From NCBI GenBank assembly GCA_024276075.1, contig JAJRXX010000005.1, positions 18,664-82,663 on the forward strand: a stretch of DNA of 64,000 bases, read 5' to 3'. The stretch's first letter is position 1; the number at the start of each line of letters is the position of its first letter. Source of the DNA: Planctomycetota bacterium. Lineage in GTDB: Bacteria; Planctomycetota; Phycisphaerae; Phycisphaerales; Phycisphaeraceae. A model generated the notes under the pieces. The model did no database searches. It was not told the origin of the DNA and saw only the letters and a list, made by a program, of their open reading frames with translations. Below, one piece after another: positions 9,329 through 62,214 of the stretch. A program made the position numbers and the translations under genes.

Positions 9329-10408
9329 ATGGCAAAGGAACGTATCATCTCGAGCCACGCCGCGGACGAGCGCGAGGAACTGCTCAACCTCTCACTGCGC
9401 CCCCAGCACATGGCCGATTACATCGGCCAGTCAAAGCTCGTCGAAAAACTACTGATTACGCTACAAGCTGTGAAGGAACGCAGCGAACCCATGGAGCACG
9501 TCCTATTGCACGGGCCGCCTGGTCTGGGCAAAACTACGCTCGCGCACATCATCGCAAACGAGATGGGCACGCACCTGACCGTGACCTCTGGCCCCGCGCT
9601 GGTGCGACCGACCGACCTGGTAGGCACCCTCACCAAGCTACAAGAAGGCGACGTCCTGTTCATCGACGAGATACACAGGCTCAGCCCTATCGTCGAGGAG
9701 TACATCTACCCCGCTATGGAGGATTTTAAGATCGACGTCACCGTCGACTCCGGCATGCACGCACGCACCATCACGCTACCCGTCAAGCCCTTCACGCTCA
9801 TCGGCGCCACCACACGCGCTGGGCTGCTCTCCGGGCCCATGCGGTCCAGGTTCGGCGTCTCACACAGCTTCGAATACTACAGCAGAGAGGAACTACTCGA
9901 AATCCTACGCCGAAGCGCGTCGCTGTTGAAAATGGGTGGCGTCAGTGCCGGCAAAAGCGGCGACGGCCTCCAAATCGAGAGCCTCCAATCGCTGGAAATG
10001 ATCGCGTCACGAGCGCGAGGCACGCCCCGTGTCGCCAACCGGCTGCTACGACGTGTACGCGACTTCGCACAGGTACGCGCCAGCGGACGCATGACACCGG
10101 ACGTCGTCGATGTATCGCTTCGGCTCGAAGGCGTCGACGACTTGGGCCTCGACGAACTCGACCGGAAGTACCTCTCCATCATCGGCCAGGTCTACAACGG
10201 CGGGCCCGTAGGACTCGAAGCCATCGCCGCCACACTGGGCGAGGATTCGGGCACACTCGAAGAGGTCGTCGAGCCGTACCTGTTGCAGGTCGGCTTCCTC
10301 GCACGCACCCGCAAGGGACGACAGCTCACCACCGCAGCAGCAGCGCACGTCGGCATCACCCTCAAACCCAACGAACAAAATAACGACGGGCTGTTCGAGG
10401 ACGAGTGA
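9329..10408 (+). CDS. ruvB: Holliday junction branch migration DNA helicase RuvB
   Basis: LRPQHMADYIGQ, Walker A HGPPGLGKTTLA, FIDEIHRL Walker B; length 359 aa. Confidence 0.95.
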   Translation: MAKERIISSHAADEREELLNLSLRPQHMADYIGQSKLVEKLLITLQAVKERSEPMEHVLLHGPPGLGKTTLAHIIANEMGTHLTVTSGPALVRPTDLVGTLTKLQEGDVLFIDEIHRLSPIVEEYIYPAMEDFKIDVTVDSGMHARTITLPVKPFTLIGATTRAGLLSGPMRSRFGVSHSFEYYSREELLEILRRSASLLKMGGVSAGKSGDGLQIESLQSLEMIASRARGTPRVANRLLRRVRDFAQVRASGRMTPDVVDVSLRLEGVDDLGLDELDRKYLSIIGQVYNGGPVGLEAIAATLGEDSGTLEEVVEPYLLQVGFLARTRKGRQLTTAAAAHVGITLKPNEQNNDGLFEDE

Positions 10409-10422
10409 AAATCGCGTTGTCT

Positions 10423-10527
10423 TAGAGCAACTTGCGTAATTATTCTCCATCTCCCCAAGAAGAAGGCAGGTCAATGACCTGCCCTACTCCAGAACTGACA
10501 TGGCGATTATTTATGCAAGGTGCTCTA
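10423..10527 (+). mobile_element. MITE-like element, type B copy 1 (105 bp, terminal inverted repeats, central hairpin)
   Basis: tagagcaacttgcgtaattatt...aattatttatgcaaggtgctcta termini are inverted repeats. Core hairpin ggcaggtcaatgacctgcc. The reverse complement differs from 37908-38012 at a single base. Confidence 0.85.
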
Positions 10528-10564: not shown

Positions 10565-11725
10565 TCACGCTGACCCGAGGATCGGTAGCGTCACGCGAGA
10601 GGTGTCACCCGCCTGCGATGCGTGGTAGGTCGCGGGCTTGGGCGGCATGGGTGTGCCAGGATTGGGAGAAGAGTCAGCCTCACCCACAACACCCGCGGGG
10701 TCGGCGTCGTGTTCCACTTCGTCAAACGTGACAAACGGCAGGCCCAGGTCACGCAGCATCTGGTGATCCTGCTGGGGTGTTCTGCCAAACGTGGTCAGGT
10801 AGTTGCCGATCAGGAAGCTCGAACCGCCGGCAAAGAATATCCAGCTCTGCATGTCACGGAGAATCTTCTCCCGGCCCCCAGCGATCTTCAGCTCACGGTC
10901 GGGCAGGATGAACCGATACACCGCGATGATCTTAAGCGCCTGCATCGGTTCCAATTCCGGCTGTTTGCCGTACAAGGGCGTGCCTTGGATAGCGGTCAGA
11001 AAATTGATCGGCACGACGTCCGCGCCCAGGTCGCGCAGCTCAAACGCCATATCCAGCCGGTCTTCCCAGTCCTCGCCCATGCCGAAGATACCGCCCGAGC
11101 AGATCGAGAGGCCCGCTTCCTTGGCGATCTTGATCGTACGCACACGGTCCTCGTAGGTATGTGTCGAGACGATGTGGGGGAAGTGTCGTCGGCTGGTCTC
11201 AAGGTTGTGGTTGACGCGCTGCACACCCATATCCTTGAGACGGCTAGCCTGCTCGACAGTCAACTCACCGAGCGTGGCGCAAGGACGGATCCTGCCCTGC
11301 TGCGCGGTGGCTTTGAAGAACGGCTCCATCCAATCGAGCTCGGCGTCGGTGGGACCTCGGCCGGCGTTGACGATGCCGAAGCTCGACGCACCGTTGCCCG
11401 CAGCCTCCACAGCGGTGGCATGCATGTCATCGACACTCAGCTTCGTCGGTGCTACGTGCGTTTTATGAAACTTCGACTGCGAGCAATAACCGCAGTCCTC
11501 GCTGCACGCGCCGACCTTGGCAGCGAGGATCGAGCAAAATTTGACCTGCCGACCCACATATCGCACTCGGATTTTGTTTGCCCAGTAAAACAGGTCGTAC
11601 AGATCGTCGCCCTGGGCATTGCATAGCTCACGGGCCTCATCGCGGGTGATCACATGGCCACCGAGCACGCGCCGACCCAGGTCGGCGATCCGATCGGTCA
11701 GCGTGTCGGCGTGGGTCTGAATCAT
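10565..11725 (-). CDS. bioB: biotin synthase (radical SAM) with Pro-rich C-terminal tail
   Basis: CSEDCGYCSQS radical-SAM cluster motif, BioB-like length plus a tail of about 50 aa. Confidence 0.9.
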   Translation of the reverse strand: MIQTHADTLTDRIADLGRRVLGGHVITRDEARELCNAQGDDLYDLFYWANKIRVRYVGRQVKFCSILAAKVGACSEDCGYCSQSKFHKTHVAPTKLSVDDMHATAVEAAGNGASSFGIVNAGRGPTDAELDWMEPFFKATAQQGRIRPCATLGELTVEQASRLKDMGVQRVNHNLETSRRHFPHIVSTHTYEDRVRTIKIAKEAGLSICSGGIFGMGEDWEDRLDMAFELRDLGADVVPINFLTAIQGTPLYGKQPELEPMQALKIIAVYRFILPDRELKIAGGREKILRDMQSWIFFAGGSSFLIGNYLTTFGRTPQQDHQMLRDLGLPFVTFDEVEHDADPAGVVGEADSSPNPGTPMPPKPATYHASQAGDTSRVTLPILGSA

Positions 11726-15659: not shown

Positions 15660-16958
15660 ATGACGCATTCTCCCCCGACGATCATGCTGATTCTCTGGTC
15701 CGCGTGGGTAATGCAGGCGGTGCTGTCTGCGTGGAAAGTACGTCAATTCCGTCGGCTGTACGATCGGCCCCGACGTGAAGCACTTCAAAGTCACTGCCCT
15801 TCAACTGCGGTGATCGTGCCGTTCAAGGGCGTCGACCAGGACCTCGTCAACGGCATCGCCGGGCTGTGCGAACAGGATTACCCCAGCTACGAATTGCTCG
15901 CCGTCGTGGAATCACCCGAGGACCCCGCTCATCGCGTGTTGACAGAGCAATTCAAACGTTACCCACACCGCCATACCCGGGTGCTCATCGCCGGGCCCGC
16001 AGGCCCCAACGAGGGACAGAAAGTACACAACCAGTTGTTTGCGATCGATCACCTGCTATCGCAAGACCCGGGTCAAGGTGCCCAGCCGGAGGTGTGGGCC
16101 TTCGCCGATAGCGACGCGGTACCCGGGCCCAATTGGCTCCGCGACTTGGTCGGACCGCTGCTTCAGGAAGACAAGACCGGCGTCACCACCGGCTACCGCT
16201 GGCTGATTCCCGTGCCGCCCGAAGCCCCCACGGAAACAGACGCCTTCGCAACCGGCCATTCCTATGACGGCGCCACGATCTGGTCGCACCTGGCTAGCAT
16301 TATGAATAGCTCAGTCGCCTGCCTGATGGGTAAAGACCGTTTTAGCCACGCATGGGGCGGGTCGATGGCGCTGACAGCAAAAACCGCTAAACGGGGTGAC
16401 CTTCGCGGTCGGTTGGCCGGGGCGCTGTGCGATGACTACCAATTCAGCAGGCTGGGCCGTGACCTGGGTCTGCGCATTTACTTCGCACCCCGGTGCCTGG
16501 TGGCGACGCCGGTCAATTTTGATTTAGCGGGTCTGATCAATTTTGCGCATCGTCAGTATTTGCTCACCCGCGTCTACGCACCGGGCTTGTTCATACTGGC
16601 CCTGGCTATGACGAGCCTCTACATCATCGGGTGGACCAGCGCGACCGCGTGGCTATTGGCGAGTGTGCTGACCGACCCCAGCAGTGGCGGTTGGCGGTGG
16701 CCCACGGCGGCGATCGCTTGTGTATTCACAGCCAACCAAGTCCGGTCATCTCTGCGTAGACAGGTCGTGAGCAAAGCGCTCGGCAACCAGGTGATCGACC
16801 AACTCCGCACTACATTGCGCATCGAGCGGTGGGCACCTTTTATTTGGATGACACTGCACTGGCTATTAATCGTGTGTTCGGCGTTCGGTCGAACCATGCG
16901 CTGGCGAGGCATCCGCTACAGACTCTGGGCACCCCAGCGCGTCGAGCGCATCGACTAG
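15660..16958 (+). CDS. membrane glycosyltransferase, GT2/GT21-like (ceramide glucosyltransferase / HpnI-like fold)
   Basis: N-terminal TM, VIVPFKG...DYPSYELLAV, DSDAVP (DxD), multiple C-terminal TM helices. Its TAG stop (16956-16958) is the first 3 nt of the adjacent repeat. Confidence 0.7.
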   Translation: MTHSPPTIMLILWSAWVMQAVLSAWKVRQFRRLYDRPRREALQSHCPSTAVIVPFKGVDQDLVNGIAGLCEQDYPSYELLAVVESPEDPAHRVLTEQFKRYPHRHTRVLIAGPAGPNEGQKVHNQLFAIDHLLSQDPGQGAQPEVWAFADSDAVPGPNWLRDLVGPLLQEDKTGVTTGYRWLIPVPPEAPTETDAFATGHSYDGATIWSHLASIMNSSVACLMGKDRFSHAWGGSMALTAKTAKRGDLRGRLAGALCDDYQFSRLGRDLGLRIYFAPRCLVATPVNFDLAGLINFAHRQYLLTRVYAPGLFILALAMTSLYIIGWTSATAWLLASVLTDPSSGGWRWPTAAIACVFTANQVRSSLRRQVVSKALGNQVIDQLRTTLRIERWAPFIWMTLHWLLIVCSAFGRTMRWRGIRYRLWAPQRVERID

Positions 16959-17036
16959 AGCAACTGGCGTAATTAATTTCCATGACCGGGTGGCACGGCT
17001 TGCTTGCAAGCCGTGAAATACAGATGTCGGTTATAC
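16956..17036 (+). mobile_element. MITE-like element, type C copy 1 (left terminus and core only; right end replaced by the A module)
   Basis: tagagcaactggcgtaattaatttccatgaccgggtggcacggcttgcttgcaagccgtgaaatacagatg... matches the reverse complement of 58297-58422 up to the shared junction caatcaagat. Confidence 0.8.
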
Positions 17037-17111
17037 CAATCAAGATTAATACTTGCGCGGTATCTGCGAACGTGAAGGCAAAACAGACAATCACTTATAC
17101 GCAATGCGTAT
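17037..17111 (+). repeat. A-module repeat copy 1 (75 bp, carries a 25-nt internal deletion)
   Basis: caatcaagattaatacttgcgcggtatctgcgaacgtgaaggcaaaacagacaatcactta/tacgcaatgcgtat; lacks catcctttacaacgcgatagaacta, which is present in the other three copies. Confidence 0.85.
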
Positions 17112-17143
17112 TACAATCCACAAAAAGGCCCGCTCCTTCACGA

Positions 17144-37077: not shown

Positions 37078-37902
37078 GTGGGTGTAGACGCCATGGGTGA
37101 ACGAAGACTCTACGACGAACAAAACCGCCGGCTTGTCTATCTCGTTCAAAAAGCGACCCCCGACTATTGGGACCAGCTCTGGACCGACTCCCAACTCGTA
37201 AAACACCTCGAGGAGAGCACCGACCGCTGGCTATTAAAAATCACAAAAAAATTCCTGCCCAACACGTCGAGCCGAATCCTCGAAGGCGGCTGCGGCACCG
37301 GCGGGAAGGTCTACACGCTCCACCAAGCGGGATACACCGCGACGGGAATTGACTTTGCCCAGAAGACAATCGCTGCTGTGAAGCAAGCCGTGCCAGACTT
37401 GGACGTGCGCATCGGCGATGTAAGACACCTGGACTTTGCCGACGAATCTTTTGAAGGCTACTGGTCACTGGGTGTGATCGAACACTTTTGGGAGGGGTAT
37501 GGCAAAATCCTTTCGGAGATATACCGCGTCTTGACGCCGGAAGGGTATTTGTTTTTGACAGTGCCGCAGCTATCGCCTTGGCGACGATACCAGGCAGCGC
37601 GAGGCCGATACGCGATGTTTGAGCCCGGAGCCGACAACGGTGAGCCAAACGGGTTTTATCAGTTCGCCATCCCGCCACGAACCATCATCAGGGACCTTCG
37701 GGAAGCAGGGTTTTCTGTGTTGCGTCACCACGGGGTCGACGGACTGCGTGGCATCAAGAACGATGTGTGTGGGCTGGCCCCTTTCGTTGCCCCAATCGTG
37801 GAGCCGCGCACGCTAACCGCTAAAGTCTTGCGCAGAGGTCTGAATGTCGCTTGCTCTCCCGTCTTCGGGCACATCCGCCTCTACATTGCCCGCAAATCGT
37901 AA
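37078..37902 (+). CDS. class I SAM-dependent methyltransferase
   Basis: ILEGGCGTGGKVYTLHQAGYTATGIDFA (motif I and post-I), LTPEGYLFLTVP. GTG 37078 or ATG 37093. Confidence 0.8.
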   Translation: MGVDAMGERRLYDEQNRRLVYLVQKATPDYWDQLWTDSQLVKHLEESTDRWLLKITKKFLPNTSSRILEGGCGTGGKVYTLHQAGYTATGIDFAQKTIAAVKQAVPDLDVRIGDVRHLDFADESFEGYWSLGVIEHFWEGYGKILSEIYRVLTPEGYLFLTVPQLSPWRRYQAARGRYAMFEPGADNGEPNGFYQFAIPPRTIIRDLREAGFSVLRHHGVDGLRGIKNDVCGLAPFVAPIVEPRTLTAKVLRRGLNVACSPVFGHIRLYIARKS

Positions 37903-37907
37903 ACCTC

Positions 37908-38012
37908 TAGAGCACCTTGCATAAATAATCGCCATGTCAGTTCTGGAGTAGGGCAGGTCATTGACCTGCCTTCTTCTTGGGGAGATGGAGAATAATTACA
38001 CAAGTTGCTCTA
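37908..38012 (-). mobile_element. MITE-like element, type B copy 2 (inverted relative to copy 1)
   Basis: 105 bp; the reverse complement of 10423-10527 differs at one position (ttacacaag vs ttacgcaag). Confidence 0.85.
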
Positions 38013-38112
38013 ATACGCATTGCGTATAGTTCTAGCGCGTTGTAAAGGATGTAAGTGATTGTCTGTTTTGCCTTCGCGTTCGCAAATGCCGCGCAAGTAT
38101 TAATCTTGATTG
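38013..38112 (-). repeat. A-module repeat copy 2 (100 bp, inverted), abutting B copy 2
   Basis: The reverse complement reads caatcaagattaatacttgcgcggcatttgcgaacgcgaaggcaaaacagacaatcacttacatcctttacaacgcgctagaactatacgcaatgcgtat; 3 mismatches to copy 4. Confidence 0.85.
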
Positions 38113-38202
38113 GTATAATACGGTTTCAGATTAATGGGTGCGTATTGAGGATCAACAAGAAGAAGCCCACACATTGCAATACGTGGGAACACCCCCTACT
38201 TA

Positions 38203-38291: not shown

Positions 38292-40262
38292 CTACCCCTC
38301 TTGTGAAAGCGGCTCGATGTTGAATCTGTTGACCAAGTCTCGAAGTGTTTCAGATTTCGATTCCAACTGTAATGTTAGAGAAGCCGCTACATCACTCAAT
38401 TCGGTCGTCTGACGGGTAAGATCAGCTACGGAAATAATGTTACTGCTGACCATCTCTGCCGCTTTAGCCTGCTCGTCAGTCGTAGCGGAAATAGCTTGAA
38501 CTAAAGCCTGCACACCCTCGGTACTGGAAACGATCTTTTTCAGGCTTTGGCCAGCCGCGGATGCACGGTCAAGGCCATTGGAAACCTGCTTCGTACCCTC
38601 AGCCATTCGGTCAACTGCTTGGGCGGTTTCTGTCTGAATGGCCTTGATTGACGTGGAAATCTCATCCGTAGCCTTGGTCGTACGATCTGCAAGTTTGCGG
38701 ACCTCGTCAGCCACAACCGCAAAACCGCGCCCAGCCTCACCGGCACGGGCAGCCTCAATGGCGGCATTCAACGCAAGCAAATTCGTCTGATCCGCGATGT
38801 CATTTATCACACCTATGATCTGACCAATCTGTTCTCCGCGTTCACCCAATTCGGTTACCGCGGCGGAGGTTGTGGTTACAGCCTCACTGATATCCTCCAT
38901 GCCCCGAATCGTTTGCTCCACCACTTCGCCACCTTCCTTAGCCATACTCCCAGATTGGCTGGATTGGGCAGCGGTCTCTTCAGACTTGCGAGCAATCTCG
39001 ACGACTGAACAAGACAACTGTTCCATTGCCGAGGAGATCGAATCTACTTGCCCACTCTGCGAGTTCATATTGGTAGCGATTTCACCATTCGAGGTGGCGA
39101 TATGCTTCGACGCATCGCTAACCTCATGTGCCGCTTTGTTTATCTCGGAAACGATCCCGCCTAACGCAGACCCCATTTCATTGATTGATGCGGTTAGCTG
39201 CCCAAGCTCGTTGCGAGTCGTAACTGGCAGCGGCGACCCCGATAAGTCGCCCCCGGCTATGGCCTGGGCCCGCTCGGCGACAGCCAAAATCGGTTTGGTA
39301 AACCGGCTGCTGACGTAAAGTGAAACCGCAATCAATATCACCGCAACGACACCCGTGATGGCGACTGCCGCATAGGTGGCTCTGGCGACAGGGGCAAAGA
39401 CTTCGCTCCTATCGATTTCCACACACAGCACCCACGGGTATTCATCCTGATGCAGATACATACCCAGAACAGGAGTACCGAGGTGATCTACAAATTCACC
39501 GACGACGTGGTGCTCCTCGATAGCCTGAAAGATACCCGAGTGTTCCAACGGGGGCTCCTGTTCGTCCTTCCCATTGACAATCTTTTGTCCATCCATCGTG
39601 ACCATGAAAATCTTGCCGGACTCTCCTAGCTCGACGTTGCTGGCCAGCAGTTCCATTTGATGGGCAATCACGACCTCGACGATGACAACACCGACGACAG
39701 TCTGACCGCCTGCGTCTTTGATCGGCTCCATATAAAGCTGATGGAAATGAGTCTTTTCGGAGAATCCAAAAAAGTCCGTGACCACCGATTGCCCCTGCAA
39801 GGCCGTCTTGATCCCAGGATGCTCGACCTCGTCGCCCAGGTGCGAGCCTTTTGAATCGCCATGCGGAGGGCTCAACACAACGCGCCCGTCAGTATCCGTG
39901 ATGAAGACATGGTGCAGCTTACCCCATGACGCTTCCTGATAGTTTCGGATGACGTGAAGCGCGTGTTGGTAGTTCTCTGACTCAGACCATTCATCGTGGG
40001 TTTCGCTCTCCCCCGCTTTGTACTGCACCAAGCCATTGATGAGGTAATCATTATTCGCCAAAGCCTTGCAGCCTTCCGCAATCGTAGTCAAGCTTCGATG
40101 CAGCGTGTCTTGTTTAACATTCGCAATCGCATCAAATCGCTCGAAGATGTCGCTCCTGACCTGATGACGCGTATTGATTACAAAGTATGTAGAGAGTGCG
40201 ATTAGAGGTATCACGCTCGACAAAATAAACATCGCAATATATTGAGACCTGATAGATTTCAC
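38292..40262 (-). CDS. methyl-accepting chemotaxis protein (Cache-type periplasmic sensor, HAMP, MA domain)
   Basis: Two TM helices flank a sensor of about 270 aa. HAMP region (IAGGDLSG). Highly conserved signalling hairpin [32 protein letters not shown]. Confidence 0.9.
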
Positions 40263-43764: not shown

Positions 43765-44031
43765 TTTTTCGATATGTGATCTTTTCACGTCAACACAGGC
43801 GCCCTGGTGAATCGATCAACAGCTTTACTTAATTGACAATGTGCTGCAAACGCATAGCGATCGTACCACTCGACGACAGATCAAGTGCAACAGGCTGATT
43901 CCTATCCCCTTTTCGACAGGCGAATCCGTCACGCTACATTTGAACGGCCTTGTAGAAAACAATCCAATATCAGTAGCGTGGAGGCCATCGAAAAAAAAAC
44001 ATGAAAACACGAGGCGACGCACACCTAATAT

Positions 44032-44131
44032 CAATCAAGATTAATACTTGCGCGGCATCTGCGAACGCGAAGGCTAAACAGACAATCACTTACATCCTTT
44101 ACAACGCGATAAAACTATACGCAATGCGTAT
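44032..44131 (+). repeat. A-module repeat copy 3 (100 bp)
   Basis: caatcaagattaatacttgcgcggcatctgcgaacgcgaaggctaaacagacaatcacttacatcctttacaacgcgataaaactatacgcaatgcgtat; 3 mismatches to copy 4. Confidence 0.85.
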
Positions 44132-44235
44132 AAGCTTGCGTTGTGGCAGCGGGCTACCGTGAAAAAACCGAATTGATAAAAATAGTTGGGAATTGACGGA
44201 TAAAAGTCTTCACGCAGCCCGCGGCTGGCGGTACC

Positions 44236-44931: not shown

Positions 44932-45098
44932 TGGGACGATTGAGGTTCGCGCCTGTAGAAACTGTGACAGACACGGATGCCCACTATCGAAAGGGAAACC
45001 CCATATCTCGTCAAAGCGAGCAGAAGCGATGCACACGGGCCTCCAACAACTTCTGCATTTTGATGATACAGGGCTGGCCACATCGATAGGTGTCGTAC

Positions 45099-45198
45099 CA
45101 ATCAAGATTAATACTTGCGCGGCATCTGCGAACGCGAAGGCAAAACAGACAATAACTTACATCCTTTACAACGCGATAGAACTATACGCAATGCGTAT
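45099..45198 (+). repeat. A-module repeat copy 4 (100 bp)
   Basis: Direct repeat of 44032-44131, same orientation, 3 mismatches counted by eye. Confidence 0.85.
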
Positions 45199-58296: not shown

Positions 58297-58422
58297 TAGA
58301 GCAACTGGCGTCAATATTTACCATCTTGATTGTATGGTAGGTGTAACCAACATCTGTATTTCACGGCTTGCAAGCAAGCCGTGCCACCCGGTCAATGAAG
58401 ATTAATGACGTCAGTTGCTCTA
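58297..58422 (-). mobile_element. MITE-like element, type C copy 2 (126 bp, complete, long TIRs)
   Basis: tagagcaactggcgtcaatatttaccatcttgattg...caatgaagattaatgacgtcagttgctcta; core hairpin cacggcttgcaagcaagccgtg; TA on both flanks. Confidence 0.85.
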
Positions 58423-60333: not shown

Positions 60334-60410
60334 CAGCACAGCCAATATTTACGAGATGGCAGGTCGTCGACCTGCCCTACCACCTATACCGTTATTTATG
60401 GGCAGCCTGC
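60334..60410. repeat. degenerate type-B-like MITE remnant
   Basis: The core ggcaggtcgtcgacctgccctac and the flank gttatttatgggcagc resemble ggcaggtcaatgacctgccctac and gattatttatgcaaggtgc of the B element. The termini are diverged. Confidence 0.4.
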
Positions 60411-60447
60411 ATATCGCGTCAACAGCCCGCAGGTCCATGTCCTACAG

Positions 60448-62214
60448 TTACGCGGGGCGTGTGGCTTTGAGCCACTTAACTAGCGCGGTGCGTGGCATGG
60501 CGTTGACGACGTTGTCTTTTGTAGCGCCGGCGCGTTGAGCGGTGAGGATGCCATAGATGAGTTGATCGAAGTCGCCCGGGCCGTGTGCGTCGGTGTCGAT
60601 CGCGAGCATGACCCCCGCGTCGATGGCGGCACGGGCGTTGACATCGTTCAAGTCGAGCCGCCAATTGTTTGCGTTGATCTCTAGGGCAATACCACGCTCG
60701 GCTGCTGCTGCGATAACCTGCTTCATGTCGGGGCTCATGCCTTGGCGTCGATTGATAAGCCTCCCGGTAGGGTGGCCGACGATGGTGACGTAGGGGTTGT
60801 GGATGGCTTTGACGAGCCGTTTGGTGGCTTTGGCGGGTTCCTGCGACAAGCCTGAGTGCGGCGATGCGACGACGAGGTCGAGCTCTTTGAGCAAGGCGTT
60901 GGGGTAGTCGAGCGAGCCGTCGGCGAGGATGTCGACCTCGGACCCCGCTAGGACGGTGATGGTCTGTTTCAGCTCGTCGGCGACGCTGCGGATGGCTTGG
61001 ACGTGCTGTTCTAAGCGATTATTTGACAATCCGTTAGCGATGGCTTGGCTGCGTGAGTGGTCGGTGACGGCGATGGTGTGAAATCCGCGCTCGGCAGCGG
61101 TCAGAGCGAGGTCGCGTATGGACCATCGCCCGTCGCTGGCGTCGGTGTGCGCGTGCAGCTCGGCTTTGATGTCGGGTAACTCGATGAGCGTGGGCAGTTG
61201 GTCTTTTTGGGCTAGCGTGATCTCGCCTCGGTCCTCGCGCAGTGTGGGTGGGATGTAGGTGAGGCCTAGTTTTTTGTAGACGTCCTGCTCGGTGCGGCTG
61301 GCGATGGGGCGGTCGTTTTTCTGGAGGCTGTATTCGTTTAAGCGTGCGCCCTGGTCGATGGCGAGCTGTCGCAGTGCGACGTTGTGCTCTTTTGAGCCTG
61401 TGAAGTACAGCAGCGCTGCACCGAAACTGTCGGGGGTCACGACGCGCAGGTCGACTTGGATAGCGTGTTTGTCGCCGGCGATGCGCACGGAGGTCTTGGT
61501 GGGGCCCTTGACGAGGACGTCGGTGACGGGTTCGAGCTTGACGAATGCGTCGCTGACGGCTTGGGCGGCTTTGTCGGGGTGCTTGGGGTTTGGCTGCATG
61601 GCGACGATCAGGTCGATGTCGCCTATGGTTTCCTTGCCACGGCGTAGACTGCCCGCATATGCGGCGTGCTTGACGCCTTGGATTTGGCGAAGTTGATCGA
61701 CGAGCCACAGTGCCAGCGGTAATGCTTGACCGAGACGAACGCGTTGGCCTGAGGTCTGAGCAAATTTGATGCTCTTGCGTAGGTTTTCGAGTTTCTTGGT
61801 ACCCAGGCCGGGCAGTTGGGCTAGTTCGTCGGTGCGGAGCTTGGCTTTGAGGTCGTCGAGGCTCTCGATGCCCGCCTGCTTCCAGAGCAGAGCGATGGTC
61901 TTAGGCCCCAGGCCTGAGATGTCCAGCAATGCGGGTAGGCCCTTGGGCAGCTTGGCGAGTAGGTCGGCGTGTTCCTTGATCTTGCCGGTGTCGAGGAACT
62001 GTGCGATGCGCTGCGCGGTGCCCTTGCCGATGCCCTCGATTTTGGCGATCTCTTTGACGTCGGGGCCGATGCTGGCCAGGTCGTCGGGCAGATCGTCGAT
62101 GACGCGAGCGGCTCGCTGGAATGCGTTGATGCGGAAACGGTCGCCGCTGAGGATCTCGAGCACAGCGGCCATCTGTTCGAACAGCGCAGCGAGTTGTTTG
62201 TTTGCGTTAGGCAT
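60448..62214 (-). CDS. polX: DNA polymerase X family protein with C-terminal PHP phosphoesterase domain
   Basis: N-terminus NKQLAALFEQMAAVLEILSGDRFRINAFQRAARVI, HhH motifs (GIGKGTAQRI, GLGPKTI), GSLRRGKETIGDIDL, PHP HAHTDASDG. Confidence 0.9.
   Translation of the reverse strand: MPNANKQLAALFEQMAAVLEILSGDRFRINAFQRAARVIDDLPDDLASIGPDVKEIAKIEGIGKGTAQRIAQFLDTGKIKEHADLLAKLPKGLPALLDISGLGPKTIALLWKQAGIESLDDLKAKLRTDELAQLPGLGTKKLENLRKSIKFAQTSGQRVRLGQALPLALWLVDQLRQIQGVKHAAYAGSLRRGKETIGDIDLIVAMQPNPKHPDKAAQAVSDAFVKLEPVTDVLVKGPTKTSVRIAGDKHAIQVDLRVVTPDSFGAALLYFTGSKEHNVALRQLAIDQGARLNEYSLQKNDRPIASRTEQDVYKKLGLTYIPPTLREDRGEITLAQKDQLPTLIELPDIKAELHAHTDASDGRWSIRDLALTAAERGFHTIAVTDHSRSQAIANGLSNNRLEQHVQAIRSVADELKQTITVLAGSEVDILADGSLDYPNALLKELDLVVASPHSGLSQEPAKATKRLVKAIHNPYVTIVGHPTGRLINRRQGMSPDMKQVIAAAAERGIALEINANNWRLDLNDVNARAAIDAGVMLAIDTDAHGPGDFDQLIYGILTAQRAGATKDNVVNAMPRTALVKWLKATRPA

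Follow-up and report, generated by a model that had tools for sequence, protein, structure and literature searches.

The repeat and its relatives in the window

The window analyzed here is a stretch of 64,000 nucleotides (C14:18664-82663) from a 2.88-Mb draft genome of a member of the Phycisphaeraceae (G000), which is assembled in 77 contigs and 96% complete. It carries two copies of a 105-bp repeat, A105, as well as copies of a 126-bp sister family, B126, and of an unrelated dispersed repeat of about 104 bp. The features that matter for what follows are listed in order of position.

9329-10408: ruvB gene (RuvB)
10423-10527, plus strand: A105 copy 1, 100% identical to the genome-wide master sequence and to 42 other copies
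10465-10483: central palindrome of A105 copy 1, GGCAGGTCAATGACCTGCC, followed by CTAC (GTAG on the opposite strand)
10565-11725, minus strand: radical-SAM/BATS gene
15660-16958: ORF that ends in the truncated B126 copy
16956-17037, plus strand: truncated B126 copy (positions 1-83), passing into one of the copies of the repeat listed next
17031-17136, 38013-38116, 44029-44134 and 45096-45198: copies of the unrelated repeat of about 104 bp
37078-37902: methyltransferase gene
37908-38012, minus strand: A105 copy 2, with one substitution, at element position 13
38292-40262: chemotaxis receptor gene
58297-58422, minus strand: full-length B126 copy with TAGAGCAACTGGCGT termini as in A105, a different central hairpin (CACGGCTTGCTTGCAAGCCGTG) and 96% identity to the family consensus
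60354-60400, plus strand: hairpin GGCAGGTCGTCGACCTGCC-CTAC plus TTATTTATG, found by nhmmer with the A105 profile (E = 7.7e-4, 15 bits, profile positions 39-93, envelope 60334-60413)
60448-62214: PolX gene

The initial annotation of this DNA had described the two A105 copies as an inverted, near-identical pair, and both the sequence and a repeat finder confirmed this. The reverse complement of 37908-38012 differs from 10423-10527 by a single change, from C to T at element position 13, and the arms returned by the finder (10419-10527 and 37908-38016) span 109 nt with 98% complementarity. Copy 1 lies 14 bp past the stop of ruvB and 37 bp from the stop of the convergent radical-SAM/BATS gene. Copy 2 lies 5 bp past the stop of the methyltransferase gene, whose convergent neighbor encodes the chemotaxis receptor, and it abuts one of the copies of the unrelated repeat. 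RuvB, the methyltransferase, and PolX are thus the gene neighbors that had been named before.

Copy 1 reads TAGAGCAACTTGCGTAATTATT...GGCAGGTCAATGACCTGCC...TTATTTATGCAAGGTGCTCTA. Its duplicated target TA occupies 10423-10424 and 10526-10527, leaving an element proper of 101 bp (10425-10525; GAGCAAC...GGTGCTC). The terminal inverted repeats, earlier described as imperfect and about 22 bp long, agree at 18 of 22 positions, or at 23 of 28 when a longer stretch is compared, and the central hairpin was found where it had been noted. As RNA, the element is predicted to fold into one long hairpin with a central stem-loop cap at -42.5 kcal/mol (z = -6.9 relative to shuffled sequences), a stability reached by 0 of 200 shuffles. 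The 105 bp have no coding capacity, as the sole ORFs that cross them are long antisense ORFs of the neighboring gene region. A search of the element against Rfam at permissive thresholds gave only a chance-level match (E = 0.35; 19.6 bits, where the gathering score is 79), and a simple scan of the element for a sigma-70-like promoter and for a stem-plus-T-tract terminator found neither.

Both copies of the 126-bp sister family in the window were absent from the initial annotation. The first bases of the truncated copy (TAG, 16956-16958) are the stop codon of the ORF at 15660-16958, and the insertion of B126 at this position may have replaced the original 3' end of that ORF. The unrelated repeat (ATCAATCAAGATTAATACTTGCGCGG...ACTATACGCAATGCGTATAA) is dispersed as well, with about 122 copies in the genome at 76% to 95% identity, and the TTAA or ATTAAT inside it is a recurrent target of MITEs with TAGAGC termini.

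A dispersed superfamily and its target site

Searching the genome with the element by BLAST returned 72 full-length A105 copies at 75% identity or above, on 40-odd contigs. Forty-three A105 copies, including copy 1 of the window, are identical and 17 more differ at one base, and the flanks are different each time. The terminal motif occurs about 300 times, with paired ends either 105 bp (58 to 59 pairs) or 126 bp (41 to 47 pairs) apart, and the second of these peaks indicates a sister family with the same termini. The catalogue was compiled with consensus sequences for A105, for B126 with its own central hairpin, and for a variant, C126. The sister families with TAGAGCA termini comprise 86 plus 8 full-length and 64 partial copies, and the superfamily as a whole amounts to 230 non-overlapping loci, 166 of them full-length, or 0.81% of the genome. 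The whole-genome self-search that had been proposed as a check on copy number therefore yielded a high and dispersed count, both for A105 itself and for the superfamily. As to the near-identity of the window pair, for which either recent mobility or gene conversion had been suggested, the 43 identical copies in unrelated flanks favor recent mobility.

A degenerate pattern for the terminus has 275 matches in this genome, against 0 for a reversed control. The same pattern was found in 17 of 144 genomes of the family, representing 13 of 70 genera, and its reversed control was again without a match. Since the counts elsewhere reach at most 32 per genome, against 275 here, the expansion is specific to this lineage. 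None of the 31 relatives and 144 family genomes used for comparison is of the same genus as the source. Two public sequencing runs that share words with the locus contained only relatives at about 90% identity, on short contigs, with no joint spanning the element, and as an exact pattern the element center had 0 matches in the JGI metagenome contigs scanned. Contigs of our draft end inside MITE copies in several places (the end of C14, and C24, C30, C56, C76, and C77), and the MITE repeats are a main cause of breaks in this assembly.

Whether the TA at each end is a target duplication or part of the repeat had been ambiguous in the initial annotation. It is a true target duplication, which four sets of observations establish. 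TA stands on both sides of both window copies and at both ends of 152 of the 163 full-length copies, and beyond TAGAGC...GCTCTA the flanks of the copies have nothing in common. For 33 elements, the target of which is itself a repeat, a paralogous uninterrupted site is available for comparison. A reconstruction of left flank, TA, and right flank aligned without a gap across the junction in 24 of these 33 cases, with exactly TA at the junction in 20 of the 24. In the best of these empty sites, C58:18919 compared with C33:22144-22225, 82 of 82 positions are aligned at 97.6% identity, and the junction reads cgtgatTAacgagg.

Second, elements that abut one another overlap by exactly one TA (C3 7320/7321, C40 32922/32923, and C49 27123/27124), as would happen if the later element had inserted at the flanking TA of the earlier one. 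Third, an A105 copy is nested in a TA inside a B126 terminus at C7:58003-58230 (126 + 105 = 231 bp), which makes A105 the younger family. Fourth, the target logo from 155 sites is Y-TA-R and palindromic, with G never found at -1 and C never at +1. IS630 is known to prefer CTAG as its target, a preference that fits this logo. Median identity is 100% for A105 and 93% for B126, and the 126-bp families are older than A105. With its 43 identical copies, A105 itself looks like the product of a very recent burst.

An IS630-family IS with the same termini

A search for a full-length IS with the termini of A105, which had been recommended earlier, was carried out by scanning 185,579 species genomes for TAGAGCAACTKGCGTAAT. 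Eight matches came from one MAG of the Phycisphaeraceae (CBDCYN01, G010) and single ones from six unrelated MAGs. In G010, TAGAGCAACTKGCGTAAT is the left end of a TA-flanked IS of 1014 bp that is present in eight copies and has the right end ...CACGCAATATGCTCTA. ISs of about 1015 bp that begin with TAGAGCAACTGGCGTAATTAAT or a similar sequence are present in G010, in a second related genome (G143; L050 281-1296, with TA on both flanks), and in our own genome, where the homolog at C45:76050-77064 has 77% nucleotide identity. The search thus identified an IS630-family IS in two related genomes and one decayed copy of it in the genome under study.

The conceptual protein of the G010 IS has 316 amino acids when its reading frames are joined across two frame changes. 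It matches the model NF033545 for "IS630 family transposase" with 188 bits (cut-off, 100), over model positions 2 to 298 of 299, and contains PF13358 (DDE_3, 4e-37) and PF01710 (HTH_Tnp_IS630). Every IS copy that we examined has its DNA-binding and catalytic parts separated by a frameshift. At the -1 frame change, an invariant 22-nt sequence, TCGCTYAAAAGAAGTCGCTGAT, is shared by the copies at L011 6378-7391, in G143, and on C45, which differ by about 23% elsewhere, and the IS of another genome, G016, has the same frame change. That this sequence has been kept amid such divergence, together with the G016 case, suggests that the frameshift is old and probably programmed; the likely mechanism is programmed frameshifting or else slippage of transcription at a short run of A. 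The 4.4-Mb genome G010 has an unusually heavy IS630 load in general, with the IS630 transposase model matching it more than 113 times across several sublineages.

The copy on C45 is dead: its left terminus has decayed to CAGACCACC, in place of TAGAGCAAC, and a TAA interrupts its reading frame. As this decayed copy is the sole one in the 96%-complete draft, which holds no intact transposase with matching termini, the elements of this assembly are non-autonomous, as had been supposed from the window. The transposase behind the A105 burst may lie in the unassembled 4%, a location suggested by the several contigs that end inside MITEs, or it may have been lost. A105 and the G010 IS match at 19 of the first 20 positions of their left ends and less well at their right ends, and the MITE termini are not identical to those of any IS that we found. 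In G143, the IS and a 105-bp MITE of A105 design occur together in one genome.

Several other loci were considered as full-length parents or partners and rejected. A pair of termini 1.3 kb apart at C39:2095-3411 turned out to be an A105 copy that is split in its central hairpin by an IS3-family IS of about 1.2 kb, which has two overlapping frames and appears to have duplicated CAAT. C74:1335-2313, C68:7-159, and C76:16280-17326 are IS630-like remnants with different termini, or fragments. The first of these is the remnant of a second IS630-family lineage (…LHLPPYSPELNPIERLW…) and is interrupted by an A105 copy at 1595-1699, and contig C68 starts with the same IS fragment.

That A105 is the substrate of an IS630-family transposase is the best reading of its IS-like termini, its duplicated TA, and its target logo. 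We put at roughly 0.9 the probability that the 105-bp repeat is a non-autonomous MITE of the IS630/Tc1-mariner type, with its transposase supplied in trans by an IS630-family IS of about 1015 bp that has the same termini. Judged by sequence, A105 displays every feature expected of an IS630-derived MITE. The presumed parent IS is built like IS630 and like ISY100, an IS of 947 bp: it is about 1 kb long, has inverted termini, duplicates TA, and encodes a product with DDE_3, an N-terminal HTH_Tnp_IS630 domain, and a match to NF033545. The 105-bp element itself differs from these ISs in its lack of coding capacity. Two further differences concern the parent type, whose TAGAGCA..GCGT termini are, among the hits examined, tied to a full-length IS in Phycisphaeraceae genomes only, and which carries the conserved frameshift site between its DNA-binding and catalytic parts.

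For ISY100, a bacterial member of the IS630 family, it has been demonstrated that the transposase uses its N-terminal helix-turn-helix domain to bind the terminal repeats and that no further protein is needed for excision, through double-strand cuts, or for insertion, which takes place almost only at TA and duplicates it (PMC2170065). By analogy with IS630 and ISY100, we propose a cut-and-paste model for A105. First, the transposase of an IS of about 1015 bp with TAGAGCA...GCGT termini would be supplied in trans and would bind and cleave at the imperfect terminal inverted repeats of about 28 bp, its predicted sites. Following excision by double-strand cuts, the element would be reinserted at a TA, preferably within Y-TA-R, and the TA would be duplicated. 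The step that assigns the movement of A105 to a transposase of the TAGAGCA type is one that we infer from the termini.

Short elements of this design are familiar from other bacteria. RUP is linked to an IS of the IS630 type (IS630-Spn1), and Correia elements duplicate TA. RUP of Streptococcus pneumoniae and Correia/NEMIS of Neisseria are listed as bacterial MITEs, as is Nezha of cyanobacteria (PMC3733652). A105 shares with them a length of about 100 to 150 bp, inverted termini of 20 to 30 bp, TA duplication, folding into a long hairpin, and tens to hundreds of copies that are mostly intergenic and near genes. This is a likeness of design in a different host lineage, and no sequence relation is expected. 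The A105 superfamily departs from all three in that at least three families of different length and sequence share one terminus type, and in that the scan of the element revealed no promoter or terminator motif. A matching full-length IS is identifiable for A105, whereas we know of none for Correia elements. In the literature searched, no description of MITEs or IS630 elements in Phycisphaerae was found. The kind of element is well known, and what sets A105 apart is that it is unusually prolific.

Gene placement and the central palindrome

To describe the surroundings of the elements, we relied on crude gene calls of our own (ORFs scored by codon usage), which gave 2135 genes and 82% coverage. 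By these calls, A105 lies in convergent spacers 33 times, in tandem spacers 29 times, in divergent spacers twice, and inside a gene once, against shares of 20%, 57%, and 22% of the intergenic base pairs for convergent, tandem, and divergent spacers, respectively (chi-square p = 2.6e-10). B126 follows the same trend (p = 5e-5) despite its different hairpin. About 72% of all TA dinucleotides are genic, and the near-absence of genic copies therefore reflects the loss of such insertions. The bias toward gene 3' ends would accordingly be a product of selection rather than of targeting: insertions in genes and in promoter spacers would be purged, so that the surviving copies are nearly all non-coding and downstream of genes. 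In tandem spacers, no orientation bias relative to the upstream gene was found (12 versus 16 for A105 and 22 versus 16 for B126), and on these counts we rejected a strand-specific function of the element.

The center of A105 has a distribution of its own. On the minus strand of the element it reads GTAG-GGCAGGTCATTGACCTGCC, a short GTAG-tagged palindrome. Of about 80 good copies of this palindrome in the genome, 74 lie inside A105 and some six stand alone. Elsewhere in the family, in different genera, the palindrome is scattered through the genome on its own, with 32 copies in G018 and 14, partly in tandem, in G003. Examples of the free form, GTAGGGCAGGTC(N3)GACCTGCC, are found at G003:C1:1816100-1816400 (L048) and at the G018 loci L002, L005, and L007, and the tandem arrays of G003 consist of units of about 50 to 70 bp that join the palindrome to a second hairpin, GCCGGCCGAAGGCCGGC, and look BIME-like.

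The free palindrome bears on the site next to the PolX gene, where a decayed third copy of the 105-bp element had been proposed at 60334-60410. The similarity to A105 consists of just the central hairpin and nine further bases (TTATTTATG), and this part of the proposal stands; homology of the remainder was not demonstrable, and we reject the site as a homolog of the whole element. For the segment at 60354-60400 there are two readings, an ancient remnant of the family and a GTAG-tagged palindrome on its own, and given the free palindromes of other genera, the second may apply.

GTAG-tagged REP palindromes (Di Nocera et al. 2013) have been reported in Planctomycetes, among other phyla (PMC3733652). 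The center of A105 resembles these in its GTAG tag and in occurring as the same unit, free, in G018 and G003. It differs from them in that the palindrome is almost always embedded in a MITE in our genome. Unlike a REP or REPIN, moreover, the 105-bp unit duplicates TA and ends in termini of the IS630 type, and for these reasons the whole element is not a REP. The best Y1_Tnp matches lie at G000:C55:136218-136562 (57.8 bits) and in G018:C438 (35 bits). No copy of the palindrome was found in the loci of about 3 kb around this best (RAYT-like) match of each of the two genomes, and an association of the palindrome with a RAYT was rejected at these two loci.

The 105-bp MITE of G143 is identical to A105 at 86 of 105 positions, and the differences are unevenly placed. 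The 29-bp center (positions 37-65) is invariant between the two genomes while 19 of the other 76 positions differ, a distribution that random placement would give with a p of about 0.02. The center of A105 may thus be a captured REP-type module. This invariance across two genera, together with the free palindrome in other Phycisphaeraceae, leads to a further hypothesis, in which A105 is a chimera whose cargo is a REP-type palindrome with a GTAG tag and in which an IS630-type MITE serves to spread a functional hairpin to sites downstream of genes. We consider this rather unlikely. If it were true, the hairpin could be a protein-binding site, a stabilizer of transcript ends, or a terminator, and the chimera would join two classes of small repeats that are usually treated separately.

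A related possibility, which would add to the MITE reading rather than replace it, is that the element has been co-opted by its host. The central GTAG hairpin, or the long hairpin formed by the termini, would then act downstream of genes, for instance as a barrier to 3' exonucleases, as a transcription stop, or as a site for a host protein, which would help to explain the retention of copies at 3' ends. The invariant center, the dispersal of the palindrome by itself in G018 and G003, and the enrichment of copies at gene 3' ends are all in keeping with such a role, and there are reports of bacterial MITEs that are co-transcribed and change the stability of mRNA (PMC3733652). However, purifying selection alone would give the same 3' bias, the 126-bp family shows that bias with a different hairpin, and a canonical terminator was not found in the element. 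The balanced orientations also speak against co-option, though a palindrome would work either way round. On the whole, we regard co-option as distinctly improbable.

A more radical alternative would dispense with transposition and make the repeat a structural or regulatory palindromic unit (REP-like, a terminator, or an mRNA stabilizer) that is kept at gene 3' ends, with TA as part of the repeat. Its strong bias to 3' ends and convergent spacers, its very stable fold, and a central palindrome that exists alone in other genera and belongs to a type known in Planctomycetes (PMC3733652) could all be accommodated by this explanation. It fails to account for paralogous empty sites with a single TA, for the TA shared by abutting copies, for nested insertions, and for termini held in common with an IS630-family IS. 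Nor do the even orientations relative to the upstream gene, the Rfam, promoter, and terminator searches of the element, or the absence of the hairpin from the loci of about 3 kb around the best Y1_Tnp match of G000 and of G018 agree with it, and we judge it highly improbable. Spread by recombination, through segmental duplication or gene conversion among pre-existing repeats, deserves almost no credence: gene conversion would also explain 43 identical copies, and many copies do lie inside or beside other dispersed repeats, but homology ends exactly at TA on both sides of essentially every copy, flanks are mutually unrelated except where the target is a repeat, the precise 103-bp insertions relative to paralogous sites are an outcome of transposition and not of duplication, and the Y-TA-R logo would be left unexplained.

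With A105 read as an IS630-type MITE, the current understanding of MITEs is unchanged, and the consequences concern this genome and its family. For annotation, one MITE superfamily explains about 230 loci, or 0.8% of a 2.9-Mb genome, as well as several contig breaks, and in at least one gene the stop codon comes from an element terminus. The GTAG palindrome inside A105 offers a small but testable lead on the exchange of modules between REP-like hairpins and MITEs. In conclusion, the repeat points to an IS630-type MITE that multiplied in a very recent burst within a lineage of the Phycisphaeraceae, and the presence of the parent-type IS in related genomes means that transposase and substrate can be paired experimentally.
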